From the NCBI GenBank assembly GCA_018401675.1, contig JAGYKM010000002.1:2871-66870 (forward strand): 64,000 nt of DNA, given 5' to 3'. This DNA is from Alphaproteobacteria bacterium. Its GTDB lineage: Bacteria > Pseudomonadota > Alphaproteobacteria > 16-39-46. The position numbers were made by a program, and so were the translations under genes. Under the pieces are notes generated by a model. That model was not told the DNA's origin and did not search any database. It was given only the letters and a program-made list of their open reading frames with translations. This document shows, piece after piece, positions 15,720-49,125 of the stretch. Positions within the stretch are counted from its first letter, which is position 1. Every line of letters starts with the position of its first letter.

Positions 15720-15729
15720 TTATTTCCCC

Positions 15730-18558: not shown

Positions 18559-18578
18559 GATAAGGAAAAGGAGAGCCT

Positions 18579-19046: not shown

Positions 19047-19207
19047 AGCCACAAGGTTTTTTTGTTTAGGCTTGAGTTTTAAGTTTAGTTTTGCCATACA
19101 GAAGGAGAACCACGTTTTATAATTTATTATCAAGTCTTCTTGTTTCTTTTTAGAAACCCACTTTAAACGAGCCCCTCTTTTATGAGCTAATTAAGGATAA
19201 TATCGCC

Positions 19208-19633
19208 ATGACTACTTCACAAAGAACCCTTTCAATCATTAAGCCTGATGCAACCCGCCGCAACATCACTGGTCAAATCAACCAACGGTTTGAAAGTCAA
19301 GGGTTGCGTATTGTGGCCCAAAAAAAGATCCGTCTCAGCCTTGCTGAAGCAGAAAAATTTTATGCCATTCACAAAGAACGACCTTTTTTTAAAGATTTAT
19401 GTGCCTTTATGTGTTCAGGACCTATCGTAGTTCAAGTTCTCGAAGGCGACAACGCTGTCTTACTTAATCGGCAAATCATGGGCGCCACGAACCCTGCAAA
19501 TGCCGACGAGGGAACGATTCGGAAAGATTTTGCTGAATCAATAGAAGCTAACTCCGTTCATGGATCAGATTCTGAAGAATCAGCGCACTCTGAAATTCAA
19601 CTTTTCTTCTCTGAATTAGAAATCGTTGGCTAA
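19208..19633 (+). CDS. ndk: nucleoside diphosphate kinase
   Basis: 141-aa ORF. The motifs [17 protein letters not shown] and GATNP are characteristic of Ndk. Confidence 0.95.
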
Positions 19634-19657
19634 AATGATTTGGGCTTGAATAAGAAT

Positions 19658-19708
19658 AAAGGACCTCTCTAGGCATCATTTTTACTGATGAGGAGAGGTC
19701 CTTTATTG
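19658..19708 (+). terminator. putative Rho-independent terminator after ndk
   Basis: An inverted repeat (aaaggacctctc ... gagaggtccttt) is followed by tatt. The loop is long and the U-tract weak. Confidence 0.45.
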
Positions 19709-19901
19709 GATCAAGCAAGGATTTTAAAGTTTGTTGGAAGTAGCACCAGCAGCTCCGCCGCAATACCTTGAATTCATTTCTCACTAACAGTACACGCAAA
19801 TAATGTAGGCAAATCAGCTGCGCAGTCTAAGAAAAGTGGCTGATGTCCTATCCCCTCTCATTCCTCGAAGTAAGCCCTCGAGTTGAAGGTCAATCTTCAC
19901 T

Positions 19902-22900
19902 CTAGTCGCTCGGCACTCCCTCCTCAATTTCTATGGGTTCCACTGAATATATATAAGTCATGAAGGATATTATAAATTCTGGCATTTTATCTCTCCCATA
20001 CGAAATAAATCGTTCGATTACACTTTTCTCAACTTTCCACTGTGTTATTTTTCTTTGATTATTACACTCCTCCAGCAAAGTCTCCCTTACCATTTCTTTC
20101 ACTTGTTCTAGCCGTGGAGGCACCAGATCCTTTAAGACTTCATTTCTAGAAGTGACTTGGTACGGAGAAATAATGGACAACTGGGGGACCACACTACTGA
20201 TTTGCTTGGAGGATAGAAGGAGTACCGAATCAAACCCAAACTTTTGAATAATTGGCCGAAGTGCTTCAGGTGCATAGTCCTCAGGTAATTCCAAATTAGA
20301 CTCTAAAAATAAGGCAAAAGCATAGGTAGAAAGCTTACTAAGATCCCTCTTAAATTCATCAAACGCATTGTGGACGTAGGGGTTAAGAAATCTATTCAGC
20401 CACTGTGACGTTGCTCTCCTTACTGTGGTCTTTTCTGAAAAAGTAAATACGAAACCACTGCTTTTTTCCAGAGTAGGGAACAGCAATTTCCTGAGATACT
20501 CCATTTCTCCCTCAGATGTATAAATTTCAGGGAGGTTTAGGGCCAATAGAGTATTTCCATCAAAGTCCGGGTGGGTCAGAATCTGTACACGATCTGTGTC
20601 TTCCAAATCTCTAAACCATTCCCCGGCAAACTTAGGTTGTGTATAGTCTTTCAGTAGGTTATCCCCTAGGTAGGTTAAGCGATATAAGTGGCACTGCAGT
20701 CTTTTCTTTTGATCTGGCAAGAATCTACTTTGTGGAATGTATTTTTTATAAGCATGTATCCCTTCTTGTTCACAGAGACTAACAAGAGCGGATCCCACGG
20801 TGGCATCTTTTCTATTTAGATATTCATCGAGTATTTCAAAAGGATAGGAAAATAGAAGCTCAGGCGAAAGGGGATATCCATCCTTTATTATTTCTAAAAG
20901 ATCTTGAAAACATTCTCTTTCTTTCTCATAAATCTGGAACAGGATCCTTTCAAAACTCTTCCAAGAAGGCTCTTCAAGTAAAGATAATTTCTTGAATACT
21001 TGGTAAACCTCAAATGGTAAGCATTGTGTTGTATTACCTGGGACACCACCTTCCTGACACATCATAAAATAGAACATGCTTTTGCCATCTTTTAAATGAG
21101 TCAGTACCGTTTCTTTTCCATTGTGCTTCATAAGCTCAGCTAATATTAAGGTGACACATTCTCCTGTAAGTTCTGTTACCCCATCGGCTTTGCGCAAATG
21201 AAAGATTTTCAAAATCATGCTATGGTATTGAGAATAGAGTGTCTTTTTATCTATGCCGCCTGCAGCCAAGCCATTCACGATGGCGTTCCATATGGGAACA
21301 GAAAGAAAATACACGAACCTAGATTCTAAGAAGGCGCTGACTTTTTCTTTTGTTGTAGCTAACTCGTTCCATAATGAAACAGGAAGAGCTGCCAAATTAG
21401 TTTTGTTCCTAATTCTGTCTATCTCTCTTCTTGAGTCTTTATCTGTCTGACGCTCTAGCAATTCACCAACAGTAAGGTTATGAAGAGTCATAGACACCTT
21501 TTCTTTTGCTGCTACTGGGGCAAGACCGAATAAATCTTCGGCCTCTGACTCACGGGGCACAACCAGGCTCAGTTGGCAATCAAGTCCCCCTTTCCATCCA
21601 ATTTCTTTCAGACCACTTAATCCATAACGGTTCAACAACCCTCGTAAGGCAAAGGGCGTTTTCGTAAAGTCAGTATTTTTCCATACTCCAAATTTCTCTA
21701 TGGATGTCATTACTGATCGGTTAGACATTTTATGGCTCAACGCAGTCATCATCATGTAATCAGCAACATTAAACTCCCTTTGCTCCCCCGATACTATATC
21801 TTTAGCTGAGAAGGGCCTTAAGCGTTCCGGCCCTTGCAAAAATACTTGCATAGCCTCACAGTCACCTTGAAAAACCGCCGACTTAAATTGACTGGTAGAT
21901 ACTGGGGGCGGAGCTACCTTTAAATTAAGTTGATTATTAAAAATTAACCCCAGCAACCCCTGTTGGGTACGAAACTCATGAAATTGTCGGATTCCAATCT
22001 CTGTCCCCTTCAATACCTCACCCGCTAAAGCAACGGTCTTCTGTTCAACCAACGCCTCTCTGGAATTGTCATGGGGTGTTGAAGGGTAGAAATGTGTTTT
22101 TACGCATGCAGGATTAGAACTTGTTAATAAGCGCACTTCATAATCCAGCAAGCTGAAAGGACGACAGCCATCAGGCGCCAGTTCTTGATATTTTCTTATA
22201 GCTCCTTCCATAACACTACTATGGCCTGCACGAATGTGAGCCATAAATCGTATGACAGGGGGCAGTTCTTTCATCCAACCAGTTTCGCCGTCCTCTAGGG
22301 AGTCGTAAAGGCTAGCAATCGTTCCATCAGGTAAGTGGCGATCCTCAAATGAAAGTGGATGATTAAAAAACCATCCCGAAAGAGCAATACTCTCATGGGC
22401 GTCCTGTGGATCAACAAATATTTGCCTCAAAACACCCAAACGGCGCTTTTCAGATGAGGAAGACGGCAAGTCTAATCCCCTCGCTTCCGGTGTACCTTGT
22501 GCTTTGGGATCACTTTTCTTAAGCTTTGGATCCTCCACATGATAGGAGGTATTGAACACCCCATGTAACTCTTCTGCTAGACTACTTGCTGTCTCAAGCT
22601 TAAGGCCCAATGATGTAAATACATCTACCAAGACGTGCTTCAAGTCGAGTGGTACCTCCGAATGACTGCGTAGCCAATAGGTTAACGTGCGACATCCATC
22701 ATGCTCGGGATTTCCTGTAAGGGCCGCATTTCCAGATACCATTACCTCAAAAGGACTCAGATACTCATTTTCTTGACTGCTCGATTGACACGTATCGGTA
22801 AAAGCTTCTTCTATATTTCCATACCGTTGAGTGACTTTGTCAAACAATCTCCAGTAAACCGGCCGTTCCGGAAAGCCCAAGATCTTTGCTAAGGCACCAT

Positions 22901-33373: not shown

Positions 33374-34622
33374 ATGAAAAGAATTAATAACTCGAAAAAG
33401 ACTCACCCTTTTTTTACCTTTTTAATCTTGGCTTTGATGCTTACTGTTCTCCATGCGCCTTCCTGGGCGGTAGTGAGCGATTTGTCTGACGCCTCAAATA
33501 AGCCCACTTCTGTAAGGCACCGGGCAGCATGGAAAAAGCGCTGGAAAGACTTCGAGCCCTTCACGCTGAAAGAGATCACTATTTTGCGTTGTATCCAGCG
33601 CTCTTTATAAAACAAGGTCCTATCCCTTTCGGTAATGATATTACCGTCGCCATTTCTCATATTACAGATGAGGACACTCGAGCATCCGTGGCAGCGCTGG
33701 CTCCTCGCCTTTTTTCAGCCGTCCCAGATGACCGATTTAATGGATCTGACCGATCGAGGATAATTAAGGCTCTTGGGGCGATTTAGGATGAAAAGACCCG
33801 AAGGTCTACTGCAGATTTGGCTCAACAGATCACGATCATCGCTGGTACTATGCATAAAGATGTCGTGATCGAGATCCTTGGAAAGACCCCCGACGAGGCA
33901 ACACGACAATCGGTTGTGACCCTGTCTATAGGCCTTTATACTGCCGATATGAGGACTTCGACCGCCGGCAGATTTTTTCCATATTCTCCCAGATGCCCGA
34001 CGAGGCAACACGACGCTCTGTTTCGGATTTAGCGCCTGCTCTTTTATCCAAATCTGAGGCTCGGTGTCCCTATGAGAAGATTCATATTGTTGAAGCTCTG
34101 AGCGCCATTGAAGATGAGCTAACCCGACGCACTATTGGGGAGCTCACCCTTGAACTCCTGAAGCTCCCTGATCGGGAACGGAGTATACCTGAAATAATGA
34201 GCAGGCTTTTGGCTATTCGCGATGGATCTGTGCGTAAACTGGGTGTGGAATTGCTCCCTGAGCTTTTTACACGCTCTTTGACCGCGGATCTGCATCCAGA
34301 TACCTTGCCTATTATTATCAATTTTCTCTGCCAGGTTCCTGATGAAGCCGAAAGGCATTCTATGATCGGCCCCTTTGCGAACCTATTCAATAACCTTCAC
34401 GAAAGTCGGTTTGTTATGATCATGCAATCTGTTGAAAATTTCAAAGATATATCCACAAAACTGTCGTTTCTCCGCCACGTTTCTTCTCTTAAAGGAAAGT
34501 ATATGAGCGAGCACGACACCTCTACACTTATATCTATCCTTCAGAAATTTCCAGATAGAGACAGTCGAGAATCTTTCGTAAACCAGGTCCTTTGGGACAA
34601 GGCAGGAGCTCTAACCTCATAA
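33374..34622 (+). pseudogene. fragmented gene for a secreted protein with ~36-aa HEAT/PBS-lyase-like repeats
   Basis: Four ORFs in three frames. They comprise a signal-peptide ORF (33374-33610), a frame +1 segment with an in-frame TAG at 33784-33786, and a shift to frame 0 near 33950-33990. The motif (I/L)..xPDEATR.SV..LAP.L recurs, including an exact 19-nt repeat cccgacgaggcaacacgac at 33888 and 33997. Confidence 0.6.
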
Positions 34623-35074: not shown

Positions 35075-37240
35075 GTGACCTGCCTTATGCCTGGCACTTT
35101 AAACACGCAAGAAAATATAAATATTTCCTTAAAAACGCCTTTGGGGGAAAATACCCTCATTTTAGAATCCTTGGAGGGTGAGGAGCATATATCACGCCCC
35201 TTCTCTTTCAGGCTCTCCATGTACGCCCACTCTCCCTCTCTTGACTTAAGTCGTTTGTTGGGAAAAGAAGCCACCGTCACCTTTAAGATTAAAGGGGACG
35301 TTCGATACCTCCATGGGATCATTGGCCAAGTTGCTCAAGGGCCAACGGTAGGACACCCTACTGCTCGAGAATCAGAGCGCACGTTGAAAGGGGCACAAGT
35401 AACTTACTATACAGCCTTTTTATACCCCTCTTTCTGGATAGAACACTTTAACCAAGATTGTCGTATATATCAAAACCAAGATACGCTGAAGATTGTTACA
35501 GAGCTCTTGAAAAAAAATAAAAAAATGCGCATTAAGGATCTTAGCCACCGCTTGGGACGCCAAGTCTTTGAGTACTGTGTGCGCTATAACGAGAGTACTT
35601 TTAATTTCGTCAGCCGGTTATTAGAAACCGCAGGGATTTACTATTTTTTCGAGCAAAAACATGACGAGCATACCCTTATTCTCAGTGATGGGGAATCGGG
35701 ATCAACTTACATTAGTGGACGTGAAATAGTTCCTTATATTCGCGAAAAATTTACCCGTCATATTCCCAATGCGGCCTTTGAGTGCTATTGGACCGAGTCC
35801 ACGGTTCCCGATGCTTTTTCTGCAGGGGACTTTAACTATGAAATACCCCACACCCGCTTGTTCTCAGAATCGAAAGGCCACGGCATTGGGGGAGAAGTGT
35901 ATGAGTATCCGGGAGGGTTCCAGAAGCAATCTATAGCTGAAAAAACCACCCCTTTACGCATTGAAGAAAGAGAATCTTTGCAAAAGATGCTAAGAGGGCA
36001 ATCTACGGTTTCCTCTTTTGCCCCTGGGTATAAATTCAAACTCAGAGGCCATGAACGCAAGGATATTAATACCACTTACATTATCCATTCCGTCCATCAC
36101 GAAGCCAGTTACGAAGAGGAAGAAGGCGGATTTTTATACAAAAATTCTTTTACGGCTTTTCCGGAAAAAACACGGTTCCGCCCGGATCTTAGAACGCCCC
36201 ATCCTAAGATCTATGGCTCTCAAACAGCTATAGTCACTGGAAAGAAAGATGAGGAAATATGGACCGATTCTTACAGTCGGATTAAGGTTAAGTTCCATTG
36301 GGATCGTTATGGTAAGGACGATGAAACCAGTTCCTGTTGGATCCGAGTGTCTACCGCGTGGGCTGGAGCTCACTGGGGGACCTTGTACACGCCTCGCATA
36401 GGCCAAGAAGTGGTGGTTAGTTTTTTAAATGGAGATCCAAATAAACCCTTGGTCACAGGCTCGGTATATAACGGTGTCCATAAACCGCCTTATCGTGCTG
36501 AAGACCCTACTATTGCTACGATGAAATCCAGCACCTCTAAAGGAGGCAAAGGATTTAATGAAATCCGTTTCCAAGACAAAAAGGACCATGAAGAGCTGTA
36601 TGTTCATGCTCAAAAAGATATGGCCATAGACATTATTAACAACAGAACCACCAAGATAGAAAAAGGTAATTGCACCACCACCATTGAAGCGGGAGATCGA
36701 ACGGTAACTTTGACTGGAAAAAAGAAGAAAGATGAAGATCCTGGAGGTCCTAAAAAGAGAGGAAATGATTTCTTAACTTTGGATACGGGAAGTCGCACTG
36801 TCAAACTCTTGGGTAAAGGTTCCGAAGAAGGATCCCATACGATGGATATTGCCAAGGGCAATCACACCTTATCCATTAAAAAGGGAAACGAGATCCGAAC
36901 CCTTACTGAAGGTAATCAGACCATCAAATTGGCCAAAGGCAATCAAACGGTTACTGTGAATGGCTCCCGGACTGAGTCTATTACCAAAGACTATACCTTG
37001 ACTGTTAAAGGCAATCTAATCATTGACGTAACGGGGAATATTACCTTAAAAGCCGGCCAGAATCTATTGGTCAAGGCGGGCCAAAACATCACCATGGACG
37101 CTGGTATGAGCTTTATAGGTAAAGCCGCAACCAATGTTACTTTCTCTGGCGCTGTCATGGCTCTCAAAGCCACAGGGACTGGAATTTATGAAGCCTCGGG
37201 TGTTCTCACTCTTAAAGGTTCTCTTGTAACCATTGTCTAA
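35075..37240 (+). CDS. vgrG: type VI secretion spike protein VgrG
   Basis: 721-aa ORF carrying the gp27-like N-domain, the hallmark gp5 OB-fold motif RIGQEVVVSFLNGDPNKPLVTGSVYNG, and a C-terminal beta-helical repeat region. The likely start is Met at 35087. There is no C-terminal effector extension. Confidence 0.9.
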   Translation: MTCLMPGTLNTQENINISLKTPLGENTLILESLEGEEHISRPFSFRLSMYAHSPSLDLSRLLGKEATVTFKIKGDVRYLHGIIGQVAQGPTVGHPTARESERTLKGAQVTYYTAFLYPSFWIEHFNQDCRIYQNQDTLKIVTELLKKNKKMRIKDLSHRLGRQVFEYCVRYNESTFNFVSRLLETAGIYYFFEQKHDEHTLILSDGESGSTYISGREIVPYIREKFTRHIPNAAFECYWTESTVPDAFSAGDFNYEIPHTRLFSESKGHGIGGEVYEYPGGFQKQSIAEKTTPLRIEERESLQKMLRGQSTVSSFAPGYKFKLRGHERKDINTTYIIHSVHHEASYEEEEGGFLYKNSFTAFPEKTRFRPDLRTPHPKIYGSQTAIVTGKKDEEIWTDSYSRIKVKFHWDRYGKDDETSSCWIRVSTAWAGAHWGTLYTPRIGQEVVVSFLNGDPNKPLVTGSVYNGVHKPPYRAEDPTIATMKSSTSKGGKGFNEIRFQDKKDHEELYVHAQKDMAIDIINNRTTKIEKGNCTTTIEAGDRTVTLTGKKKKDEDPGGPKKRGNDFLTLDTGSRTVKLLGKGSEEGSHTMDIAKGNHTLSIKKGNEIRTLTEGNQTIKLAKGNQTVTVNGSRTESITKDYTLTVKGNLIIDVTGNITLKAGQNLLVKAGQNITMDAGMSFIGKAATNVTFSGAVMALKATGTGIYEASGVLTLKGSLVTIV

Positions 37241-37272: not shown

Positions 37273-40000
37273 ATGACTGATGACACCTTCCCCTTTATCC
37301 TAGTGGATGGATCGGGGTATATTTTTAGAGCTTACTTTGCTCTTCCATCCCTAACGCGACATGATGGAGGCAGCGTAGGTGCGGTTTTTGGTTTTACCAG
37401 CATGCTTCTTAAGCTTCTTGATTCACAAGGGCGCGATGGGTTGGTGGTTATATTTGATGCAGGCCGGAAAACCTTCCGGAATACCATTTATCCAGCTTAT
37501 AAGGAGAATCGCCCCCCACCCCCGGAGGATCTCATTCCTCAATTTCCCTTAACCCGTGTGGCGTGTGAGGCCTTGGGCGTTGAGTGGATTGAAAGTGATG
37601 GATTCGAAGCTGATGATTTAATCGCTTCTTATACTAAAAAAGCCCTCGCGTCGGGCAGAAAAGTGCGCATCATCTCCAGTGACAAGGATTTGATGCAGTT
37701 AATTCAGCCTGGGGTTACCTTTTTTGATCCCATGAAACAAAAAGTCGTCGATGAAGTAGGTGTATTGGAAAAATTTGGTGTGGCTCCGAATCAAGTCTGC
37801 GATGTTTTGTCTTTGATGGGAGACGCAAGTGATAATATACCCGGAGTGCCCGGCATTGGACCGAAAGGAGCCGGTCAGCTCATTCAGCGTTTTGGAAATT
37901 TAGACACTCTGTTAAGTCACATAGACCAAGTGGAGAAACCCTCCCACCGTAAAACTCTAGAAGAACATAAAGATAAAGCGTTGCTGTCTTACCAATTGGT
38001 GTGTCTGGATGCGGATGTTCCCTTGCCTATGCCCTTAAAGGATCTCAAAACCAAGCCTTTAGATATGAATTTATGTTTGTCCTTTTTTAAAGAACAAGGA
38101 TTTTCCTCTCTTATTCCTCGATTAGAAAGATATAGAGCAAAACTGGGGCAAGAAAGCATAACGGCCTCACCTGAAGGTGAGAAATATGCCCCTCAACTGG
38201 AGTGGACTTATGAACCTCTGGCCAACAAAAGTGAACTCGTTGCGGTTGTGGAAAAAGCTTCTAACGCCTCTTATCTCTCTTTGGTACTTGAGGACACCCA
38301 AGATGGGCAAAAAATTGCCTTTTGCTTCGAGGATAAAAATGCCTATAGCGTCCTCTTAACCAGTTCAGGAACGGGGGACCTTTTTACCCCCACTGCAGGA
38401 CAGCTAACTTTTAAAGAAGCTTTGAGCGTTTTAGCGCCCCTGCTCAAAGACAAGAGTCTTATGAAAGTCAGCCAAGACATCAAACAGATCCTTCTGGTTC
38501 TCGCCCCTTATGGCTTTTCCTTAGAACCTTTTCAGGATGTACTTCTTATGGGATACGATGTGTCAGGATGTAAAACTGGACAAACCTTGAGTAGTTTGGT
38601 TGATGACTACTTAGAGCTATCCTACGAGGATAAAAAGACCCTAGGCCTCATAGAGCCCGAATCTACGCCTTCCATGAGCCCAGATAAACGCGATGCCGCT
38701 CAGGCTTATTTGGGTCTTAAGCTGGTTTCTGTTCTTCAAAGTCGCCTCATTAAAGAAAAAGTGTCGAGTATATATGAGTGTATTGATAAGCCCGTTATCC
38801 CGGTTCTTGGAACTATGGAGCGGAAGGGCATACTTGTAAGCGCTGAGCGGCTCAAGCTCTTAGGCAATGAGTTTGGAGAAAAAATGAATTCCTTGGAAAC
38901 CCAAATTTATGCCCAAGCCGGGCATAGTTTTTCTATTGGGTCTCCCAAACAATTAGCGGAAGTTCTCTACAAGGAAATGGGCTTTGAAACGGGGTCTAAA
39001 GGCAAGTCTGGTGACTATAGTACCAAAGCAGATATACTTGAGGCACTGGCCGCCCAAGGGCATATTTTTCCCCAGCTGGTTTTACAGTGGCGCGCTTTGG
39101 CCAAATTAAAAAATACCTATGCCGATGGTCTTCTTGAGTACATCGATCCTACTGATTCTCGTATTCATACCTCAATGTCGTTGACGGCCACGGCCACTGG
39201 AAGGCTTGCTTCTTTTAACCCCAATCTTCAAAATATTCCCATACGTACCGAGGAAGGTATAAAAATTCGCAGTGCCTTTTGCGTTCCGGAAAATCATGTG
39301 CTCCTGTCTCTCGACTATTCTCAAATCGAGTTACGTCTTTTGGCACATATGGCTAATATTCCCTCCCTCATTGACGCTTTTTGGAAGAATCAAGATATTC
39401 ACGCCATTACCGCTGCCCACGTATTTGAGTGCCCACTGGACAAAGTAGATAAGGCCCTAAGACGAAAAGCTAAAATCATCAATTTTGGCATTATATATGG
39501 CATAAGTCCCTTTGGCCTTTCCCAACAACTAGGTATTTCAAGAACCGAGGCAAAAGAACACATAGATAGCTACTTTAAAACCTATCCGGGCATTCAAGAT
39601 TACATGGAAGCTAAAAAGGAGGAGGCGCGCCAAAAAGGATACGTAGAAACCTTATGGGGACGCCGATGCCGTATTACGGATATTCATAGCTCTAACGGAA
39701 TCAAAAGAAGCTTTGCAGAAAGACAAGCCATTAACGCGCCTTTACAAGGCAATCGCTGCGGATATTATTAAAAAAGCAATGATTCAAAGCTATGAATGGG
39801 AAAAGGAGAAACAAACAGCCCCGAGTTTGTTACTTCAAGTTCATGATGAGCTCTTATTCGAGGTTTCTGAAAAAGAGTTTTTAGTTTATGCAAATTCTTT
39901 AAAATCCATCATGGAAGGGGTTATTAAGCTCTCCGTTCCTTTGGTGGTTGACGTTTTCAAAGGAAATAATTGGGGCGCTTTGAGACCAGTAGCCTCTTGA
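37273..40000 (+). pseudogene. polA: DNA polymerase I, frameshifted near the C-terminus
   Basis: The 832-aa ORF holds the 5'-3' exonuclease domain, a degenerate 3'-5' exonuclease domain, and polymerase motifs A and B. The frame breaks at about 39750, inside the conserved INAPLQG|AADIIK region. Motif C (QVHDELLFEV) and the C-terminus are encoded in the overlapping 95-aa ORF 39713-40000. Confidence 0.8.
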
Positions 40001-40102: not shown

Positions 40103-40342
40103 ATGAACTTTTATAGTAGAAAAACAATGATCAAAATACTCTCAACAAGTCTTTGCTTAGCTTTGGCTGCTTTCACCTTGCCTGCTTTTAACGTTAGTGC
40201 GGATAAGTGCCATGGTAAATGTATCTGCGTAACAGGAAAACCATGTCCCGACAAGGACTGTAATTGCACCGAAAAAGGCGTGCAGGTTGCACGTTGTGAC
40301 TGTCTTACTAAAAAAGAAGAGGCTGAAAAAAAAGCCGCTTAA
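40103..40342 (+). CDS. small secreted cysteine-rich protein
   Basis: 79-aa ORF with a signal peptide (likely start at MIKILST). The ~45-aa mature region contains 11 Cys and ends in a K/E-rich tail. Confidence 0.5.
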   Translation: MNFYSRKTMIKILSTSLCLALAAFTLPAFNVSADKCHGKCICVTGKPCPDKDCNCTEKGVQVARCDCLTKKEEAEKKAA

Positions 40343-40601: not shown

Positions 40602-41477
40602 ATGGGGACTCTTCTATGGGGACCGGTTGGCGGAACGGATCTAAAGCCCAAATCAACTTTTTTGATTTCATGTAATTACACCGCCAGTAAGTTTCTGGAC
40701 CTGCTCCATGATGACTTTTCTACAAAATTATTGCAAAAAAATCTCCCAGCCCTAAGCGACGTAATAGTTCCGCACTACCTTATAAAAGAAACATTGAAAA
40801 AGAACGGTATTTTCATTGGAGGTAGACCCAAAGGGAGCTATTGCGCACAAACGGGTTACACCGTGCCTATTATGGTTTTTTTCAACAAGAAAACCTTGAA
40901 GACTGAATCTCTTAATCTGTCAAAAGAAGATCTTCGAGCTATTGTTTTCAGCACCATTTTTCATGAAAATATGCCTATTACCGGACATAATGTGGGCCGT
41001 TATTGGACCATATATACTGGAGCCATAGTCGGATCAACCAAGAAAGGTATTTCGAATTATACGAACATTCCCTATAGCCGTGTCAAACAAACCAGTGAGA
41101 ATCCCAAAGCTTCCTTTGAAAATGCGAACTTCATCCGAGATCTGATTATTGATGATAATGTAGACTTTGTGTTTGTTCCCTATCCTCTCAATAATATGTT
41201 TTTTCATACAGAAGAATCAGATGCAATAGGTATAGCCACCGTTGAAGGCAAGATGCCAAATGACCTAAACTACCCTATTGTAGATTATATACTGTATGTT
41301 TGCGGACAAAACGCAGATAATCAGCTCGTTGACTCGGTAGCTCAAATCCTAAATGACAGAGATATCCAACATAAACTGAAAGAATTTGGGGTTTTCCCCA
41401 TAGAGGATAACCAAAAGGCTCTGGCAGAAAAGTTAGCGCTAGAATGTCCTGATCTTTATGCAAGAAGCGTTTATTAG
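40602..41477 (+). CDS. hypothetical protein (orphan; candidate T6SS-associated cargo)
   Basis: 291-aa ORF in an AT-rich segment between vgrG/polA and tssB. No family was recognised by eye. Confidence 0.45.
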   Translation: MGTLLWGPVGGTDLKPKSTFLISCNYTASKFLDLLHDDFSTKLLQKNLPALSDVIVPHYLIKETLKKNGIFIGGRPKGSYCAQTGYTVPIMVFFNKKTLKTESLNLSKEDLRAIVFSTIFHENMPITGHNVGRYWTIYTGAIVGSTKKGISNYTNIPYSRVKQTSENPKASFENANFIRDLIIDDNVDFVFVPYPLNNMFFHTEESDAIGIATVEGKMPNDLNYPIVDYILYVCGQNADNQLVDSVAQILNDRDIQHKLKEFGVFPIEDNQKALAEKLALECPDLYARSVY

Positions 41478-41647: not shown

Positions 41648-41721
41648 TGGAGCGGGCGAGGGGAATCGAACCCCCGTCGTAAGCTTGGGAAGCTTCTGCT
41701 CTACCATTGAGCTACGCCCGC
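41648..41721 (-). tRNA. tRNA-Gly (anticodon CCC)
   Basis: The reverse complement reads GCGGGCGTAGCTCAATGGTAGAGCAGAAGCTTCCCAAGCTTACGACGGGGGTTCGATTCCCCTCGCCCGCTCCA. It is near-identical to E. coli tRNA-Gly(CCC), with anticodon loop TTCCCAA. Confidence 0.9.
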
Positions 41722-41738
41722 TATTTTTCTAAAGATGG

Positions 41739-41814
41739 TGGTGTCCCCAACGGGATTCGAACCCGTGTTGCCGCCTTGAAAGGGCAGTGTCCTAGGCCTC
41801 TAGACGATGGGGAC
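41739..41814 (-). tRNA. tRNA-Glu (anticodon TTC)
   Basis: The reverse complement reads GTCCCCATCGTCTAGAGGCCTAGGACACTGCCCTTTCAAGGCGGCAACACGGGTTCGAATCCCGTTGGGGACACCA. It resembles E. coli tRNA-Glu, with anticodon loop CTTTCAA. Confidence 0.9.
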
Positions 41815-42324: not shown

Positions 42325-42903
42325 ATGAGTGAAAGTATCCAACATCTTCTTGAAAAGATTCGTCCCCCTCGCGTCCAAATTACTTATGACGTGGAAATAG
42401 GTGATGCAATCATAATGAAACAATTGCCATTTACCGTTGGTGTACTGGCAGACTTGGCAGGGGTTCCGGATCCTAATTCTCCTCCTGTACCGCTCAAAGA
42501 TAGACAATTCGATTCTATTGATCGGAGCACTTTTGATGTGATTATGGGCAAAATTGGTCCACGTTTACCACTTCAAGTGCAAAACGTGATGACGCCTAAT
42601 GGAGGGCCTTTAGAGGTGCTTTTGAATTTCAAAAGCATGGAAGATTTCAATCCAATTAACGTGGCAAGACAAGTACCAGAAGTCGCTCAAGTGCTTCAAG
42701 CCAGAGAACTTCTTGCCAACTTGCTCACCAAGCTTGTAGGAAATCAACCTCTTGAAACCCTTCTTGAGTCTGTTTTGGCCACCCCTGATTTACCAAAAAG
42801 CCTTTTGGCCCAAGCTCAAGCAGCAATCAAAAAGAGCCAACAAGCTCCTGCTAAAGCTGACGCGAAACCAGGTCAAACACCACCTGCACCCTCTTCAAAA
42901 TAA
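42325..42903 (+). CDS. tssB: type VI secretion sheath small subunit TssB (VipA)
   Basis: 192-aa ORF. PRVQITYDVEIGDAI..KQLPFTVGVLADLAG...PL.DR.F..IDR..FD is a strong match to the TssB/DUF770 consensus. Confidence 0.9.
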   Translation: MSESIQHLLEKIRPPRVQITYDVEIGDAIIMKQLPFTVGVLADLAGVPDPNSPPVPLKDRQFDSIDRSTFDVIMGKIGPRLPLQVQNVMTPNGGPLEVLLNFKSMEDFNPINVARQVPEVAQVLQARELLANLLTKLVGNQPLETLLESVLATPDLPKSLLAQAQAAIKKSQQAPAKADAKPGQTPPAPSSK

Positions 42904-42940: not shown

Positions 42941-44404
42941 ATGGCTGATCCAACCGCAACCCCCACAGGTACGAGCGACCTTTTAACGCAATTCGTTACG
43001 ACTGGAAATCTCGCCAGAGATCCCGCTCAAATTCAATATGCTTATCAAATGCTGCAAGAGTTTGCTAACCAAGTATTGACCCAAACTGATGCAACTCCTA
43101 AGAATCCGGCAGCTTTTCTCTCAGCTCAAATTGCTCGACTTGATGGCATTTTATCAGATCAGCTGAATGAGATTATCCATCAGCCCGCTTTCTTAAAGCT
43201 TGAGGGCTCATGGAGAGGTCTTAATTACCTCGTGATGAACACCTTTACAGGCACCGAATTGAAAATCAAGTTGCTTAATGTGAGCAAAACTGATCTTTTG
43301 AATGACTTAGAAAATGCGGTTGAGTTCGACCAAAGTCAACTATTCAAAAAAGTTTACGAAGCGGAATACGGCACTTTGGGTGGCGAACCCTATTCTTGCC
43401 TCATTGGTGACTATGAATTTGGTCCTTTGCCGCAAGATATGTCCTTACTATCAAAGATTGCGGGCGTGGCTTCTGCAGCTTTTGCTCCCTTCTTTGCCGC
43501 AGCCAGTCCTACCATGTTCAATCTAACCACCTACATGGATCTGGGTGTCCCTATGGACTTAGCGCAGATTTTTGAAAACGTGGACTACATTCAATGGAAC
43601 GCCTTTCGTGAAACCGACGAATCTCGCTATGTGGTGCTCACGCTCCCACGTGTCTTGATGAGGCTTCCGTATGGCCCGAATACTGTCCCTGTAAAAGGCA
43701 TCAATTTCATCGAAAAAGTAAACGCTGATGATAATGCTGATTTTTGTTGGGGCAATACTGCCTATACCATGGGTCAGCGGATTACCAATGCGTTCTTCCT
43801 TTACAACTGGACCGCAGCTATTCGCGGTGTGGATGGTGGTGGATTGGTGGAAAATCTACCTGTCTATACCTATCAAACCACCGAAGGAGATATGGCCGTT
43901 AAATGTCCCACAGAGATTGCCATAACTGACCGGAGAGAGTTTGAATTGAGTAACCTTGGCTTTATCGCCCTATGTTATTGCAAAGGCACCAATACGGCGG
44001 CCTTCTTTGGAGCGCAAACAACTCAAAAACCAGTTGTTTACAACACCAATGAAGCCAATGCCAATGCCAACCTCTCTGCACGCATTACCTACATGATGGC
44101 AGCTTGCCGATTTGCTCATTATATCAAATGTATGATGCGAGATAAAATTGGTACCTTTATGACTCACGGGAATGTACAAGACTATCTTCAAACCTGGATT
44201 GCGAATTATGTGTTGCTCAATGACAATGCGCCTGAATCACTCAAAGCAGCTTACCCCTTGAGAGAAGCTCGGGTAGATGTGGTAAGTGTGCCCAGTGACC
44301 CAGGTAAATATAAAGCAACGGTTTTTCTAAGGCCTCATTTCCAATTAGAAGAACTACAAGCCTCCTTGCGGTTGGTAGCAACGCTACCCCCACCAGCAGG
44401 CTAA
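42941..44404 (+). CDS. tssC: type VI secretion sheath large subunit TssC (VipB)
   Basis: 487-aa ORF immediately after tssB. Conserved TssC blocks (FLKLEGSWRGLNYLV, ..PRVLMRLPYG, GN..Y) are present. Confidence 0.9.
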   Translation: MADPTATPTGTSDLLTQFVTTGNLARDPAQIQYAYQMLQEFANQVLTQTDATPKNPAAFLSAQIARLDGILSDQLNEIIHQPAFLKLEGSWRGLNYLVMNTFTGTELKIKLLNVSKTDLLNDLENAVEFDQSQLFKKVYEAEYGTLGGEPYSCLIGDYEFGPLPQDMSLLSKIAGVASAAFAPFFAAASPTMFNLTTYMDLGVPMDLAQIFENVDYIQWNAFRETDESRYVVLTLPRVLMRLPYGPNTVPVKGINFIEKVNADDNADFCWGNTAYTMGQRITNAFFLYNWTAAIRGVDGGGLVENLPVYTYQTTEGDMAVKCPTEIAITDRREFELSNLGFIALCYCKGTNTAAFFGAQTTQKPVVYNTNEANANANLSARITYMMAACRFAHYIKCMMRDKIGTFMTHGNVQDYLQTWIANYVLLNDNAPESLKAAYPLREARVDVVSVPSDPGKYKATVFLRPHFQLEELQASLRLVATLPPPAG

Positions 44405-44529
44405 GCGGTTAGATCTTGGAGCCTTAGGAGAGGAGGTGTCGTCAATGACCTCCCCTCCTAGACTCCCCCTACAAAAAGAAAAATAGAAGGTACATAGTGC
44501 CTAAGTGATACTTTGGGAGACATAAAACA

Positions 44530-45063
44530 ATGATAGATAGCTTTGGAAGAGACGTCGGAACCATTGATAATAATATTATTGTGGTAGGAGCGTGCTCAAA
44601 AAATTCTTTACTTAAGGGAAGTACCACCTACAAAGGATATAAAGATCACTTTAGGCTACGTGGATTCCCTACCGTATCCGTCCTCAACCCTTTCAGGCCT
44701 ACGAGAGAGCAAGCCCGTATTCTGACCAACCCTGTTATTATGCCTATTACTCTGGAAGTGGTTATCGGTAGTTCTGTTCCTTACGCTTTTCAAGCGCTTT
44801 GTGACGGAAGTAATCTTGGAACCATGACCTTAACTGAACTCATCTCCGATGGGAATAACCTTCAACCGCTTCGTACTTTAAAGCTTGAAAATACCTATGT
44901 GACCTTCTGGAAGCTTCTAGGCGGCAGAGATGGCGGAATTTGTCAATTCACTGTAACCTTCGATGTCATGACTCAAACACGTGCCTCTGTCTCTCAAACA
45001 CAAAAGAAACAGGGTAAGACGGCAGCTACAACCAATCAATCCACAGGACAGCCTAAATCCTAA
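44530..45063 (+). CDS. divergent Hcp-like (TssD) tube protein, paralog 1
   Basis: 177-aa ORF after tssC. Its central and C-terminal blocks (ITLEVVIGSSVPYAFQALCDGSNLGTMTLTEL ... TLKLENTYVTFWKL..GG.DGGICQFTVTFDV) align by eye to Hcp blocks (DKSSPNLMLAC..GKH...A.LT ... L.I.L..VLVSSVS......E.V.LNF..V). Confidence 0.55.
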   Translation: MIDSFGRDVGTIDNNIIVVGACSKNSLLKGSTTYKGYKDHFRLRGFPTVSVLNPFRPTREQARILTNPVIMPITLEVVIGSSVPYAFQALCDGSNLGTMTLTELISDGNNLQPLRTLKLENTYVTFWKLLGGRDGGICQFTVTFDVMTQTRASVSQTQKKQGKTAATTNQSTGQPKS

Positions 45064-45121
45064 TAAAACCACATAAAGCCACCGACATCAAAACCTAACG
45101 ACCCAAGAAAGGGCTACAATA

Positions 45122-45742
45122 ATGACAAAAACAACCCCCTTTTCCCCACTATATGCAACTCAGCATTTCGAGCAGTCTGGGTTTACCCATAGCGATGAAG
45201 ATAACTTCAGAGCTCTATTGGAGTCTCTCATAGCCTTAGAAACCGCAAACCTTGGCGAGGCTACCAACGAATCCGCTTCTATTCTTGTAACGATTAAACA
45301 GATTCCAGGAACCGCTAAGGCTGGAAAAATATCCAAAGCCATCGAAGCCTACGGATACTATATTGCTGGACGTAAAAAATCCGTAGTGGGTGAAAATGGC
45401 CAACTCCTCTCTTCTGGCCATGTGGTTTTATGGGATTTGTGTATTATTTTTCCAGATAATTCTTTTGTCGAATCTGCCATCCAGGAAACCTTTACGGGAA
45501 AAAACGTAGGGGACGTAAAGCTGGCTTACCTTAGAAATGATGGAAAAACTGCACAACCTGCCTTTGAGATTGATCTCTCAAATGCGAGAATATCAGCCTT
45601 GAGAGAAACTGAAACTGGTACATCAATGAGTTTTGGGTTTGATTCTATTAAAATTACCTACTTCCCAGTAGGTGACAAGGGCGCAGCCTCAGGAAAAGTG
45701 GCTGCTGGATTTGATCTCAGCAAAAACGCGCAGAAGAAATAG
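45122..45742 (+). CDS. divergent Hcp-like (TssD) tube protein, paralog 2
   Basis: 206-aa ORF. ESAIQETFTGKNVGDVKLAYLR ... AFEIDLSNARISAL...SMSFGFDSIKITYFPVGDKGA matches the Hcp C-terminal pattern. Confidence 0.55.
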   Translation: MTKTTPFSPLYATQHFEQSGFTHSDEDNFRALLESLIALETANLGEATNESASILVTIKQIPGTAKAGKISKAIEAYGYYIAGRKKSVVGENGQLLSSGHVVLWDLCIIFPDNSFVESAIQETFTGKNVGDVKLAYLRNDGKTAQPAFEIDLSNARISALRETETGTSMSFGFDSIKITYFPVGDKGAASGKVAAGFDLSKNAQKK

Positions 45743-45775: not shown

Positions 45776-46306
45776 GTGCTTATGGGAGATCTCGTGCCTA
45801 TAGACTCTCCTTTTCTGCCTGACGATTCTCCCCTTTCGGGAGATTGGACATCCTTGGGAGGAAGCGTTCCTCTTTTTGATTTGCTCACCACCCAGCTCTC
45901 CACCTCCAGCAAAACACCCGCAGCCTCTCGTGTCTTCTCAAAAGAAGAGTTGCGTGCCTCTATCATCTATGAAATCCAACTCCTTCTGAACGCACGGGTT
46001 AAAATTCCCCTTGCCCTTTATACGCAAATTCTTGAAACAAATCATACAACTGGTTTTCCTGAACTATACGGGATTCCTGATTTTTCAGCTTTTGATGCTT
46101 CGGATATGGGTACATGGGCCCTCTATGCAGATTATATAAAAAATGCCATCATCACTTATGAACCTCGATTGATAAATGTGGATGTAACTTTCGAGAAATT
46201 TGAAGCCTCGTCCCAAGTTATCTTAGCGTATTTAAGTGGAGACGTGATTTACCAGTCCATGATTGAGCCTTTCTCGTTTTCTGTCAAAATATCTAAATCT
46301 TCCTAA
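45776..46306 (+). CDS. tssE: type VI secretion baseplate protein TssE (gp25-like)
   Basis: 176-aa ORF. LFDLLT......EL..SI..E.QLLLNAR....LALY .. I..YEPRL is the GPW/gp25 signature. Confidence 0.8.
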   Translation: MLMGDLVPIDSPFLPDDSPLSGDWTSLGGSVPLFDLLTTQLSTSSKTPAASRVFSKEELRASIIYEIQLLLNARVKIPLALYTQILETNHTTGFPELYGIPDFSAFDASDMGTWALYADYIKNAIITYEPRLINVDVTFEKFEASSQVILAYLSGDVIYQSMIEPFSFSVKISKSS

Positions 46307-46315
46307 AGGGCCTTT

Positions 46316-48127
46316 ATGCAAAATAAACTTTTTGATCTCCTGACTTACTATGAAAAGGAGATGGCATATCTAAAAAATATGGGATCGCAATTCTCCTCCC
46401 AGTACCCCAAAGTTGCCCAGCGCCTTACCTTGGGAGAAGGAGACGTGTCAGATCCTCATGTAGAGAGGCTCATCCAGTCCTTTGCCTTTCTGACTGCCTT
46501 TTTACAACAAGACATTCACAATGAGTTTCCGCGGATTGCGAATGCCCTTCTTACGAATATCTATCCTCAATTTAATCATCCCATTCCTCCCACTTCCGTA
46601 GCTCAATTTCAAGTAGATCCCAAACAAGGGAAACTCACTTCAGGCTTTACTGTTGCAAAAGATAAACCTTTATTTGCGCGGTCTGAATCTGGAGTAACCT
46701 GTAAGTTTCATACCGGCTATGATGTGGAACTATGGCCTATCCAAATAGAGGACATATCCATTGACCTCACCCGTAATTATTCGTTTAACCAGTTTTTCTC
46801 CCCTCACTCTCACTGTTTAAAAATCCGCTTATCCACATTTGCAGATTCTTTTTCTGAGTTAACCCTCGATGCCCTTCAGTTTTATATCAATGGACATAGA
46901 ACCACTCAAAGTGCCCTTTATGAAGGCATCATTGCGCCTGATCTCCCCTGTGCCGTAGCCTTAGACTTATCTACCGAAGCGCAAATAATCCCTAAGATGG
47001 TCCCTCGGCCGGATGGCTTCTCTGAGAACGAAACCATTTTCCACATGCCATCCCAAGCCCATCCTGCATATACTTTACTGCTTGAATATTTCTTCTGCCC
47101 GGATAAATTCTTTTTCTTTACTCTCGAGGGATTTAAGCAACTTGCTCCCGCCAAAACCATAGATATTCTAGTCCCCATTTCCAATCCTGATACTTTGCTC
47201 AAACTGGGCGTTGATACTTCCTCTTTGTTATTAGGGTGTACTCCTATAATCAATTTATTTAAAAAAATATCAGATCCAATCCAAGTTTCCCATCTTCAAA
47301 GCGAATATAATCTGATTCCCGATCAACGCTTAGAGATGGTTACAGAGATCTATTCGGTGCTTTCAGTATCGGGGATTGAAGCAGGTCAGGTCACTCCAAG
47401 AACCTTAACCCCCTATTTTGCCTTTGATCAGAAGGCACAAGCTACTGAACAAAAGGCCTTTTGGATCTCAAGACGAACCCCCACCGTCCGCCCTGGCTTG
47501 CCTGGCACAGACATATTAGTATCCTTTGTGGATTTTAATTTTGATCCCACCGTTCCCCAGACGGAAACCATTTATGCCGAAATCCTATGTACCAATAGAA
47601 TTCTTGCATCTCAACTTCCCGCAGGCGCTATTCTCGAAGTAGACGATACGATCCCCACTACCCAGATTACTTGTTTGAAAATTCCCTCGTCTCCTAAATA
47701 CCCTCCTGAAGGTGGAGCCACTTTATGGAGCCTAGTTTCTCAACTTTCTTTAAATCAGATTTCATTGTCGAACTCTCCAGGAAGCTTAGAAGCGTTCAAA
47801 AGCTTGATGCGCGTTTACGCTCAATTCGGATCCCCTTCCGACTCACCTGAGGTGGAATCCTTGGTAAAAATGTCCTGCGACTATACCGTGCAGCGCATGG
47901 GAACAGACGCCTGGCGGAATTTTATACGGGGCATATCCATAACCCTTACTTTTGATGAAAGATATACAGGCGGGACCTCAATCTTTCTTTTTGCAAGCAT
48001 TCTGAACCAATTTTTTGGGCTTTATGTCTCTTTAAACTCTTTTACTAAACTCTCCATCCAAAAGTATAACCAGGAAGGAATCTGGAAGGAATGGGCACCT
48101 ATCGCCGGGGGTCAACCCCTCCTGTAG
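46316..48127 (+). CDS. tssF: type VI secretion baseplate protein TssF
   Basis: 603-aa ORF. The N-terminus (YYEKEMAYLKN.G..F...YP.VA.RL.L...D..DP.VERL..SFAFL) matches TssF/ImpG. Confidence 0.85.
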   Translation: MQNKLFDLLTYYEKEMAYLKNMGSQFSSQYPKVAQRLTLGEGDVSDPHVERLIQSFAFLTAFLQQDIHNEFPRIANALLTNIYPQFNHPIPPTSVAQFQVDPKQGKLTSGFTVAKDKPLFARSESGVTCKFHTGYDVELWPIQIEDISIDLTRNYSFNQFFSPHSHCLKIRLSTFADSFSELTLDALQFYINGHRTTQSALYEGIIAPDLPCAVALDLSTEAQIIPKMVPRPDGFSENETIFHMPSQAHPAYTLLLEYFFCPDKFFFFTLEGFKQLAPAKTIDILVPISNPDTLLKLGVDTSSLLLGCTPIINLFKKISDPIQVSHLQSEYNLIPDQRLEMVTEIYSVLSVSGIEAGQVTPRTLTPYFAFDQKAQATEQKAFWISRRTPTVRPGLPGTDILVSFVDFNFDPTVPQTETIYAEILCTNRILASQLPAGAILEVDDTIPTTQITCLKIPSSPKYPPEGGATLWSLVSQLSLNQISLSNSPGSLEAFKSLMRVYAQFGSPSDSPEVESLVKMSCDYTVQRMGTDAWRNFIRGISITLTFDERYTGGTSIFLFASILNQFFGLYVSLNSFTKLSIQKYNQEGIWKEWAPIAGGQPLL

Positions 48128-49125
48128 CCGAGCTCTTATTTCTGAAAACTTCAGAATTTCAATTTGTTCAAGCTGTCAGGATTTTACAAAAACTGCGTCC
48201 GAATAGTGCTCCTTTGGGGGAATCATCACTCCCCAACGATGATCCGGTGATTTTTAAATCCCATGTCTCTTTTGCGTTTAAAAGTAGTGATCTTTATACA
48301 CTCACCCAAAACGCTTCCGGCCCCCCTCACTTAAGCATAAATTTTATGGGGATTGCAGGAAACTCTGGCCCCCTCCCCACACCCTATGTCCAAACACTGA
48401 TCAATCGCTCTAATCAGTTTGATAATGCTTTTAGAGACTTTCTGGATATTTTCAATCACCGCTTGATCTCTCTTTTGTATGTTATCAGAAAAAAATACCG
48501 GCTGGGCATCGACGAAATACCCGCAGAAGAAACTTCAGTAGGGGCCATTCTTAAGGCCCTCATTGGATTAGGTTTTAGAAATTCGGCCTTTACGCAAAGT
48601 TTCCCAATTCCGGTAAAAAGCCTTCTTAATTTTGCAGGATTATATTGGCCCATCCAACGCGCCTCAGTGGGCTTAGTTAAAATCCTTAAAACTTATTTTA
48701 ATGTGCCCGTTTCTATTCAGCAATTCACAGGAGAATGGCTGCAAATTCCCCTCGGTCAACAGTCCCGTCTCTCGGCCACCGGCCCGTTTAATCAGCTAGG
48801 CAAAAATCTTACTCTAGGATCACGATGTTGGGATAAAACCACCTCTTTTACCCTTTGCCTAGGCCCTCTCTCCTTAGAACAATTTACGTCTTTTCTTCCC
48901 ATTGGCCCTTATTGCAAAAACTTATGTGCCCTTACTTCCTTTTACTCCCGTCCCGATAAAGCCTTTAATGTGCAACTCACCATCGCTCCTGACGAAGTGC
49001 CTTCGTTAATATTAGGGACTAAATCCTATCTAGGTTGGAAAACTTGGCTTAAAACCCAACCCTTTGGACCCAACCCAGGCATGGTTTTCCTCTCTCAAGA
49101 GCGCCTTCCTCTCTTAGGGGCCTAA
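48091..49125 (+). CDS. tssG: type VI secretion baseplate protein TssG
   Basis: 344-aa ORF overlapping the tssF end. The N-terminal F.FVQAVRILQ motif matches TssG/ImpH. Confidence 0.8.
   Translation: MGTYRRGSTPPVAELLFLKTSEFQFVQAVRILQKLRPNSAPLGESSLPNDDPVIFKSHVSFAFKSSDLYTLTQNASGPPHLSINFMGIAGNSGPLPTPYVQTLINRSNQFDNAFRDFLDIFNHRLISLLYVIRKKYRLGIDEIPAEETSVGAILKALIGLGFRNSAFTQSFPIPVKSLLNFAGLYWPIQRASVGLVKILKTYFNVPVSIQQFTGEWLQIPLGQQSRLSATGPFNQLGKNLTLGSRCWDKTTSFTLCLGPLSLEQFTSFLPIGPYCKNLCALTSFYSRPDKAFNVQLTIAPDEVPSLILGTKSYLGWKTWLKTQPFGPNPGMVFLSQERLPLLGA

Follow-up and report, generated by a model that had tools for sequence, protein, structure and literature searches.

A pair of divergent Hcp-family proteins in the tube position of an alphaproteobacterial type VI secretion operon

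INTRODUCTION

Canonical type VI secretion systems (T6SS) of type i carry one gene for the tube protein Hcp (TssD), located between tssC and tssE; examples of the protein are Hcp1 of Pseudomonas aeruginosa (1Y12), the Burkholderia pseudomallei Hcp (4TV4), and EvpC of Edwardsiella (3EAA). Here we analyze a 64-kb stretch of DNA from an alphaproteobacterium (contig JAGYKM010000002.1, hereafter the window), in which this position is occupied by two adjacent genes, hcpA and hcpB. Their products share with canonical Hcps the Pfam family PF05638, a predicted β-barrel fold with one helix, and the tssC-tssE position. They differ in being two, with ~20% identity between them, and in that neither is recognized by NCBIfam. 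Compared with canonical Hcp, HcpB adds an N-terminal extension of ~50 residues, and HcpA, at a pI of about 9-10, is basic and features a loop rich in Arg and a tail rich in Lys. The best explanation for the pair is that HcpA and HcpB split long ago and are both functional Hcp (TssD) proteins. By analogy with heteromeric Hcps described elsewhere, we propose that they could form an obligate partnership that builds the inner tube of a type-i T6SS, a tentative reading that we rank first while giving it somewhat less than an even chance of being correct.

Diverged paralogues with a tube fold are familiar from phages and extracellular contractile injection systems (eCIS). T4 gp19 with gp48 and gp54, Pvc1 with Pvc5, and Afp1 with Afp5 are all sets of a tube protein and its initiator or adaptor paralogues, in which the bulk tube is made of one protein and each of the others contributes a single specialized ring. 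In the T6SS, the gp27-like domain of VgrG is thought to be the template or initiator of the tube. HcpA and HcpB resemble the phage and eCIS sets in that diverged tube-fold paralogues lie within one contractile-machine locus. They differ in that their fold match to phage tube and baseplate-tube proteins is much weaker than that to Hcp, and in that there is no sign of unequal copy number for the two proteins.

The closest described pairs of Hcps are those of the T6SSiii of Bacteroidales. In Bacteroides fragilis, hcp2 and hcp3 are adjacent and divergent, and their products assemble into 3:3 heterohexamers in vivo, with neither forming a stable homomer; an additional helix close to the N-terminus of Hcp2 (residues 12-23) lies on the outside of the ring (PMC13035841). 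A complex of this type goes by the name Hcp1-Hcp2 in PMC13213661. The heterohexamers load effector into the tube of a separate, homohexameric Hcp (PMC13035841, PMC13213661), and the minor Hcps co-segregate with effector cassettes (PMC13213661). Like HcpA-HcpB, the Bacteroidales pairs are adjacent, divergent, and conserved as a unit, and one partner has an extra N-terminal helix. However, they belong to another T6SS class and another phylum, flank variable effector cassettes, and co-vary with effectors, whereas HcpA-HcpB are encoded in a sheath/baseplate operon with no adjacent effector and no third hcp in the window. The Hcp family and heteromeric Hcps are both known already, and the pair is therefore not categorically new. 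We found no description in the literature of a two-Hcp module that is fixed in a type-i T6SS core operon and conserved across a clade.

A similar gene organization has been reported for Holosporales. The complete 1.39-Mb genome of Candidatus Bodocaedibacter vickermanii is reported to have a single gene for an 'Hcp1-like superfamily protein', 525 nt long and located after tssC, with a normalized read value of 55.2 compared with 42.9 for tssB and 14.4 for tssC (PMC8163844). According to a 2025 review, TssD is apparently lacking in Holosporineae and the T6SS is non-standard (PMC11909080). These descriptions make no mention of a second Hcp-like gene after the first (PMC8163844, PMC11909080). They agree with our loci in that the T6SS genes form scattered blocks, with [tssB-tssC-hcp] apart from vgrG, and in that Hcp is weak or barely detectable. 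The window differs from the published sets in having tssEFG directly after the pair.

RESULTS AND DISCUSSION

Hcp family membership and predicted fold

HcpA and HcpB match PF05638 (T6SS_HCP) with 27.8 and 28.0 bits, respectively, relative to a gathering score of 23.5 (E about 3e-6), and both matches span nearly all 129 profile positions. NCBIfam provides no model for either protein at E ≤ 1, and annotation pipelines miss them for that reason; NCBI nevertheless lists one HcpA orthologue as 'type VI secretion system tube protein Hcp'. When the family profiles are compared with the sequences in the Protein Data Bank (PDB), the credible matches are all Hcps for both proteins. The HcpA profile retrieves 9qpe_A (E=1.1e-4), Vibrio cholerae Hcp, and P. 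aeruginosa Hcp3, and the HcpB profile retrieves EvpC and Acinetobacter baumannii Hcp1.

Monomer models were generated with AlphaFold2 (AF2) from the family alignments, which are shallow (14 and 16 sequences). Both models are of moderate confidence, with a pLDDT of 65.4 and pTM of 0.62 for HcpA, and a pLDDT of 75.6 and pTM of 0.65 for HcpB. In Foldseek searches against the PDB, the top 50 matches of each model are all Hcp structures or engineered Hcp1 fusions. The best match is 4tv4_B in both cases, with E=1.3e-7 and TM 0.61/0.74 for HcpA, and E=5.8e-12 and TM 0.62/0.88 for HcpB. The HcpB model also superimposes on 1y12_A with an rmsd of 2.2 Å (E=8e-12). Judged from these models and the profile matches, both are Hcp-family proteins with a predicted Hcp β-barrel fold. 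The Hcp-like character proposed in the initial annotation is thus upheld by structure prediction, and when canonical Hcps are aligned by hhalign, the similarity blocks on which that proposal relied fall in the conserved helix region of Hcp (D.SSP.L....GK) and in the strands that follow it.

The initial annotation had also suggested that the proteins might be IglC-like, of the Francisella type, and phage gp19 was a further candidate tube protein to be compared. The weakness of the Hcp similarity is in keeping with such identities, as the Pfam scores exceed the threshold by only about 4.5 bits and NCBIfam gives no match. Nevertheless, Pfam, the PDB profile comparisons, and Foldseek yield Hcp only, and no IglC is found in the Pfam, NCBIfam, and PDB sequence searches or in the Foldseek top 50. 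In addition, TssB, TssC, TssE, TssF, and TssG match the standard type-i equivalog models rather than the exception model of the Francisella IglH type; TssF scores 554 bits on the standard model vs 17 bits on the IglH-type model. Phage gp19, tail-tube, and baseplate-tube proteins fit worse: compared in BFVD with the HcpA model only, they attain TM values of 0.32-0.48 with high rmsd, below the 0.6-0.88 of the HcpA and HcpB matches to Hcp. In PHROGs, the best match for HcpB has E=0.11 and none is returned for HcpA. With the Hcp matches clearly better than those to phage proteins, a gp19-like identity was rejected, and we regard the chance that either protein is something other than an Hcp as negligible. 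PADLOC returned nothing, and a defense-system or phage origin of the pair was set aside on this result and on the single PHROGs match. Neither HcpA nor HcpB contains a recognizable fused effector domain of the kind, classically C-terminal, that defines Hcp-ET or 'evolved' Hcps.

Sequence features of HcpA and HcpB

By its alignments, HcpB is a fairly ordinary Hcp core (residues 54-205) preceded by an N-terminal extension of ~50 residues (residues 1-50 or so). The HcpB profile aligns end to end with canonical Hcps of 156-172 residues (E=5.4e-29, 23% identity), such that residue 50 onward is matched from canonical residue 1 to the last residue. HcpB retains both the N-terminal strand of canonical Hcps and their C-terminal G-x-D-L-x-x-N strand. 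The extension is modeled as a low-confidence segment and a predicted helix at residues 26-44. It is 40-60 residues long across the clade and poorly conserved apart from a short E-x-x-x-F-(T) motif, and it has no domain match in Pfam, PADLOC, or PHROGs.

HcpA is characterized by an invariant Arg-rich loop, NPFRPTRxxxRxLTNP (residues 53-68), that corresponds to the extended loop of Hcp and falls within a low-confidence region of the model (residues 55-67). Its C-terminal tail is short, Lys-rich, and of low complexity. Against the same canonical Hcps, the HcpA profile gives E=2.6e-15 and 15% identity; this comparison set was drawn from HcpB's own matches and favors HcpB over HcpA.

The two proteins align with one another by BLASTP over 45 residues only (33% identity, E=7e-5). 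Profile-profile alignment extends the match to HcpA residues 28-169 and HcpB residues 61-198, with 20% identity over 133 columns, a probability of 98%, and E=2.9e-13. The initial description of the pair as very different from each other (177 vs 206 aa) is accurate, with about 20% identity over the Hcp core. HcpA is as far from HcpB (E=2.9e-13) as it is from canonical Hcps (E=2.6e-15), and the pair is therefore not the product of a recent tandem duplication. A single gene split by a frameshift was likewise rejected: each open reading frame (ORF) encodes a complete Hcp domain with its own start and Shine-Dalgarno sequence, and a spacer of 27-79 nt separates the two in all loci.

Gene order in the window

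The T6SS features of the window are as follows.

35075-37240, + strand: vgrG, the spike protein, 721 aa (Pfam Phage_GPD 220.6, Gp5_trimer_C 77.4, and Phage_base_V 53.3 bits)
41651-41814, - strand: two tRNA genes, which bound the operon on its upstream side
42325-42903, + strand: tssB, small sheath subunit, first gene of the operon (PF05591 150 bits; TIGR03358 152 bits)
42941-44404, + strand: tssC, large sheath subunit (PF05943 418 and PF18945 145 bits; TIGR03355 646 bits)
44424-44461, + strand: imperfect 13-bp stem-loop with no T-run after it, within the 125-nt tssC-hcpA spacer
44530-45063, + strand: hcpA, derived, basic Hcp paralogue, 177 aa from an ATG start in the ORF listing (PF05638 27.8 bits; AF2 model; Foldseek)
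45122-45742, + strand: hcpB, acidic Hcp paralogue with a canonical-like core, 206 aa from an ATG start in the ORF listing (PF05638 28.0 bits; AF2 model; Foldseek)
45776-46306, + strand: tssE, gp25-like baseplate subunit (TIGR03357 60 bits; PF04965 37 bits)
46316-48127, + strand: tssF, baseplate (PF05947 570 bits; TIGR03359 554 bits)
48091-49125, + strand: tssG, baseplate, last gene of the operon (PF06996 278 bits; TIGR03347 273 bits)

The operon is continuous and co-directional, in the order tssB-tssC-hcpA-hcpB-tssE-tssF-tssG. The order tssB-C-hcp-E-F-G is that of the P. aeruginosa H1 cluster. As originally noted, both ORFs fill the canonical Hcp slot, with tssC before them and tssE after. Translation of tssE probably begins at the ATG at 45782, 7 nt downstream of an AAGGAG. 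The vgrG gene is located 5 kb upstream of the sheath operon, with polA in between, and past tssG come cvpA and radA on the opposite strand. The remainder of the window consists of housekeeping genes. None of tssA, H, J, K, L, or M is found among the window ORFs of at least 120 aa that were scanned against Pfam, and HMMs for HcpA, HcpB, and canonical Hcp identify no third Hcp-like ORF in the 64 kb. There is no effector gene next to the pair: its sole neighbors are tssC and tssE, and nothing lies between hcpA and hcpB. The genetic linkage to effector cassettes beside a separate major Hcp, which marks the Bacteroidales pairs, is thus absent from the window.

The spacer between tssC and hcpA (44405-44529) has a minimum free energy of -34.5 kcal/mol (z=-2.0), and its stem-loop is not called by the terminator scan. 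Stable hairpins are also found in the tssC-hcpA spacers of two related loci, L003 (2714-2833) and L008 (9923-10000), with z from -2.0 to -3.1 overall. In the window, L003, and L008 they lack sequence conservation and a T-run. These hairpins may be intra-operon elements of mRNA stability or processing that raise hcp expression relative to tssBC. Downstream of the spacer, hcpA has the Shine-Dalgarno sequence GGGAG 10 nt before its start. In almost all of the eight loci compared, hcpA and hcpB are each preceded by a separate GGAG-type Shine-Dalgarno sequence, the weakest being those of hcpB in the window and L003. No terminator or promoter is detected between hcpA and hcpB beyond chance.

Distribution and pairing

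Both proteins have few relatives. A word-indexed search of 5.8 billion proteins returned three relatives of HcpA and six of HcpB, and a profile search raised the HcpA set to 14. The HcpB HMM matched 71 proteins among 1.84 billion representatives at E ≤ 1e-3; about 10 of these are N-extended and the others grade into ordinary Hcps. Additional profile scans gave two loci from genome contigs and one from metagenomes. Exact-sequence look-up found no identical record for the HcpB of the window, and one relative from the HcpB search has 'Alphaproteobacteria bacterium 16-39-46' as its named source.

In the window and in L001-L011, L013-L016, and L018, hcpA directly precedes hcpB in the same orientation. 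The A-then-B arrangement spans about nine lineages, in which identity falls to 32-38% for HcpB and about 30% for HcpA. L001-L005 have the full order tssBC-A-B-tssEFG seen in the window. In L008 and L009, tssEFG does not follow tssBC-A-B but lies elsewhere, which is the block order described for the Holosporales T6SS. The pair stays together despite the displacement of tssEFG in L008, L009, and L015. L013/L014 and L015/L016 are the distant paired loci, with HcpB 32-38% identical to that of the window, and the pair is also carried by L006, L007, L010, L011, and L018. Adjacency and inheritance as a unit, as seen in the Bacteroidales pairs, therefore extend over these nine or so lineages. The initial annotation considered paired divergent tube subunits unusual, which is correct for T6SS of the proteobacterial type. 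It does not hold within this clade, where the pair occurs in every locus with enough context, and it is further qualified by the adjacent, divergent Hcps that form heterohexamers in Bacteroidales, known from 2026 (PMC13035841, PMC13213661).

Selection and charge

Both hcp genes are under strong purifying selection. Comparison of L002 with L005 yields dN/dS values of 0.07 for HcpA and 0.09 for HcpB; between the window and L003, pN is 0.10 for HcpA and 0.14 for HcpB, with synonymous sites saturated at a pS of about 0.76. Over seven loci, mean identity is 75% for TssC, 65% for TssB, 51% for HcpB, 50% for HcpA, and 46% for TssE. HcpA and HcpB thus evolve faster than the sheath proteins, and their pairwise distance matrices are closely correlated (r=0.98).

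These observations bear on whether HcpA and HcpB are redundant or condition-specific tube subunits, or whether one is a decaying duplicate. Several hcp genes are common in many bacteria, and split housekeeping genes in the window, described below, are compatible with genome decay. However, both proteins are full-length in all lineages and strongly conserved by selection, and at ~20% identity each retains invariant motifs specific to its family. Their adjacency has been kept across deep divergence, contrary to what redundancy predicts, and differential regulation is unlikely because the genes are presumably co-transcribed. We consider redundancy or decay very improbable.

The two proteins also differ in charge. 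In the window, the pI is 9.55 for HcpA and 5.95 for HcpB. HcpA has a pI of 8.6-10.25 in 13 of the 14 sequences, and essentially all of its excess charge resides in the loop (+2 to +4) and the tail (+1 to +8). The pI of HcpB ranges from 4.4 to 6.6, and its N-terminal extension carries a charge of -2 to -6 in most sequences. A sample of canonical Hcps (n=14) has pI values of 4.1-7.8.

Models for the inner tube

A heteromeric tube is ranked first because the genes are strictly co-inherited in the core operon, have comparable translation signals, and evolve at equal rates, because the proteins have opposite charges and no other hcp was seen in the window or in the published genomes, and because the Bacteroidales complexes set a precedent. 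Between the two alternatives left from the initial annotation, a hetero-oligomeric tube and a tube with an accessory Hcp, this indirect evidence tends toward a stoichiometric partnership. In this scheme, HcpA and HcpB would be translated in comparable quantities from a single mRNA spanning tssB to tssG and would co-assemble into mixed hexameric rings, in the manner of Bacteroides Hcp2-Hcp3. Alternating rings of HcpA and HcpB would be a less likely arrangement. Some of the contacts could be supplied by flexible, oppositely charged parts, namely the basic loop and C-terminal tail of HcpA and the acidic N-terminal extension of HcpB. The heteromer is proposed as the bulk tube on which the TssBC sheath would polymerize, rather than as a minor cargo adaptor, because the window has no third Hcp-like ORF and no more than one Hcp-like gene is listed for Holosporales in the literature. 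In a stronger version, the clade would have no homomeric Hcp at all, and the bulk tube would be an obligate HcpA-HcpB heteropolymer with the N-terminal extension and the basic loop and tail acting as an inter-subunit latch. To our knowledge, no other contractile injection system would then share a main tube made of two different subunits; we hold this version to be doubtful.

Several points weigh against a two-Hcp tube. Canonical Hcps are matched far better by HcpB than by HcpA (E=5.4e-29 vs 2.6e-15, in a set biased to HcpB), and HcpB alone could form a homomeric tube. A stacked tube might leave too little room for the six 50-residue N-terminal extensions of each ring. The supporting models are monomers with moderate pLDDT (65 and 76), computed from few aligned sequences (14 and 16). 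Any two indispensable components of one machine would likewise be expected to co-occur and to evolve at equal rates. Charge complementarity is not universal, since in L015, the most distant paired lineage, HcpA (3478-4011) is acidic (pI 4.8, net -9) and is missing the RPTR loop motif; its HcpB is more acidic still (net -18). The sole exception to pairing is L012, a 3-kb contig on which a lone, divergent HcpB-like gene (2169-2786, 37% identity, N-terminal extension present) lies beside recO with no HcpA upstream. A third hcp may be present elsewhere in the genome, the search having covered the 64-kb window. Finally, in Bacteroidales the tube is formed by a homomeric major Hcp, and the heterohexamer serves next to it as a minor adaptor for effectors (PMC13035841, PMC13213661).

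The proximity of HcpB to canonical Hcps suggests another arrangement, in which HcpB would be the sole bulk tube subunit, assembled as homohexamers, and HcpA would form a low-copy accessory ring, either a cargo adaptor or chaperone in the manner of the Bacteroidales minor Hcps, or an adaptor between the VgrG hub and the tube comparable to the tube initiators of phages and eCIS. The end-to-end alignment of the HcpB core agrees with this, as do the structural matches, the strongest of which come from the HcpB model (target TM up to 0.88). HcpA is far more derived, with 15% identity to canonical Hcps and a lower pLDDT; its invariant Arg-rich loop suggests a specialized contact, its model shows weak structural likeness to phage baseplate-tube and tail-completion proteins, and minor Hcps beside a major Hcp do exist in Bacteroidales. 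Yet hcpA belongs to the core operon, where it comes straight after tssC, is preceded by a good ribosome-binding site, and shows no attenuating signal; it has no effector gene next to it, unlike the Bacteroidales minor Hcps, and evolves as fast as hcpB. Moreover, an N-terminal extension of 50 residues is unusual for a bulk tube subunit, and the initiator role is already held by the gp27-like domain of VgrG. On balance, a tube of HcpB alone is a serious alternative that we nonetheless judge unlikely.

The converse assignment would make HcpA the bulk subunit and HcpB a specialized one that ends or caps the tube as a ring, plugs it, or carries a small cargo as an N-terminally 'evolved' Hcp, with its N-terminal extension on one ring face or in the lumen. 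It is hcpA that holds the exact canonical position after tssC. The Hcp-like gene of Bodocaedibacter, whose read value exceeds those of tssB and tssC, is suggested to be HcpA by gene order and size (525 nt), and not by sequence. The HcpB extension, with its short conserved motif, is present clade-wide. Engineered fusions in the PDB (4ksr and 7o42) join a partner protein to Hcp1; we take the partner to be attached to the Hcp1 N-terminus and to stack on one ring face, where an extension would presumably hinder stacking. Set against this, the extension has no recognizable domain and is poorly conserved beyond the one motif, HcpA resembles Hcp less than HcpB does, and hcpA and hcpB are equally conserved with comparable translation signals. 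We think a tube of HcpA alone improbable, and less likely than one of HcpB alone.

Relation to the Holosporales systems

From its gene organization, we infer that the window derives from a Holosporales genome. The assembly GCA_002257235.1 is part of a Holosporales/Hepatincolaceae phylogenomic dataset. HcpA and HcpB probably account for the 'missing TssD' of Holosporales-type systems. Holosporales are obligate symbionts of protists, and the T6SS is regarded as their key, nearly universal machine for host interaction (PMC11909080). If the window and its relatives do belong to this order, the tube would not be missing but encoded by two Hcps that are too divergent for routine annotation. A reason to doubt that the Holosporales T6SS functions would then be removed, and targets for antibodies, tagging, and cryo-tomography would be gained. 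Should the two-Hcp tube also be correct, heteromeric Hcp rings would extend from the accessory effector adaptors of Bacteroidales to the tube itself, in a type-i core operon. If HcpB alone builds the tube, the outcome would be a conserved accessory Hcp with no assigned role, mainly of specialist interest.

Other observations in the window and related loci

Several housekeeping genes in the window are split or truncated. The polA gene (37273-40000) consists of two overlapping ORFs of 832 and 95 aa, and the pepA gene for an M17 aminopeptidase (16979-18558) has separate, overlapping ORFs for the N-domain and the catalytic domain. An M24 prolidase-type peptidase (9730-11534) is likewise divided into an N-terminal and a main ORF, and the uvrD ORF (4515-6197) begins at position 168 of the helicase profile. 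These defects are either assembly indel errors or gene decay of the endosymbiont type. The T6SS genes of the window are all intact.

The largest ORF in the window (19902-24056, - strand) encodes 1384 aa with no Pfam match at E ≤ 0.001, and could be a secreted or effector protein of a symbiont. Between polA and the T6SS operon are two + strand ORFs that could encode T6SS-associated cargo. One (40103-40342, 79 aa) starts with a hydrophobic, signal-like N-terminus followed by a body rich in Cys (CHGKCICVTGKPCPDKDCNCTEKG...); the other (40602-41477, 291 aa) has no family match. An ORF of 209 aa just upstream of vgrG (33993-34622, + strand) has no Pfam match at E ≤ 0.1; the Holosporales papers place a ywqK-family antitoxin gene at the corresponding position before vgrG.

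Among the proteins retrieved by the representative search, P0045 (1436 aa) carries a series of six Hcp domains in tandem (PF05638, 182 bits over 6 stretches), an unusual poly-Hcp fusion. Beyond these it has cadherin-like/Ig domains, RTX repeats, and a serralysin-type C-terminal domain, and it is unrelated to the window. Downstream of tssG, L001 encodes an ankyrin-repeat protein and a patatin-like protein (11160-12203 and 14248-15720), and L005 has two large ORFs with no domains (15109-19902). The products of these genes are candidate eukaryote-directed effectors near the T6SS core.

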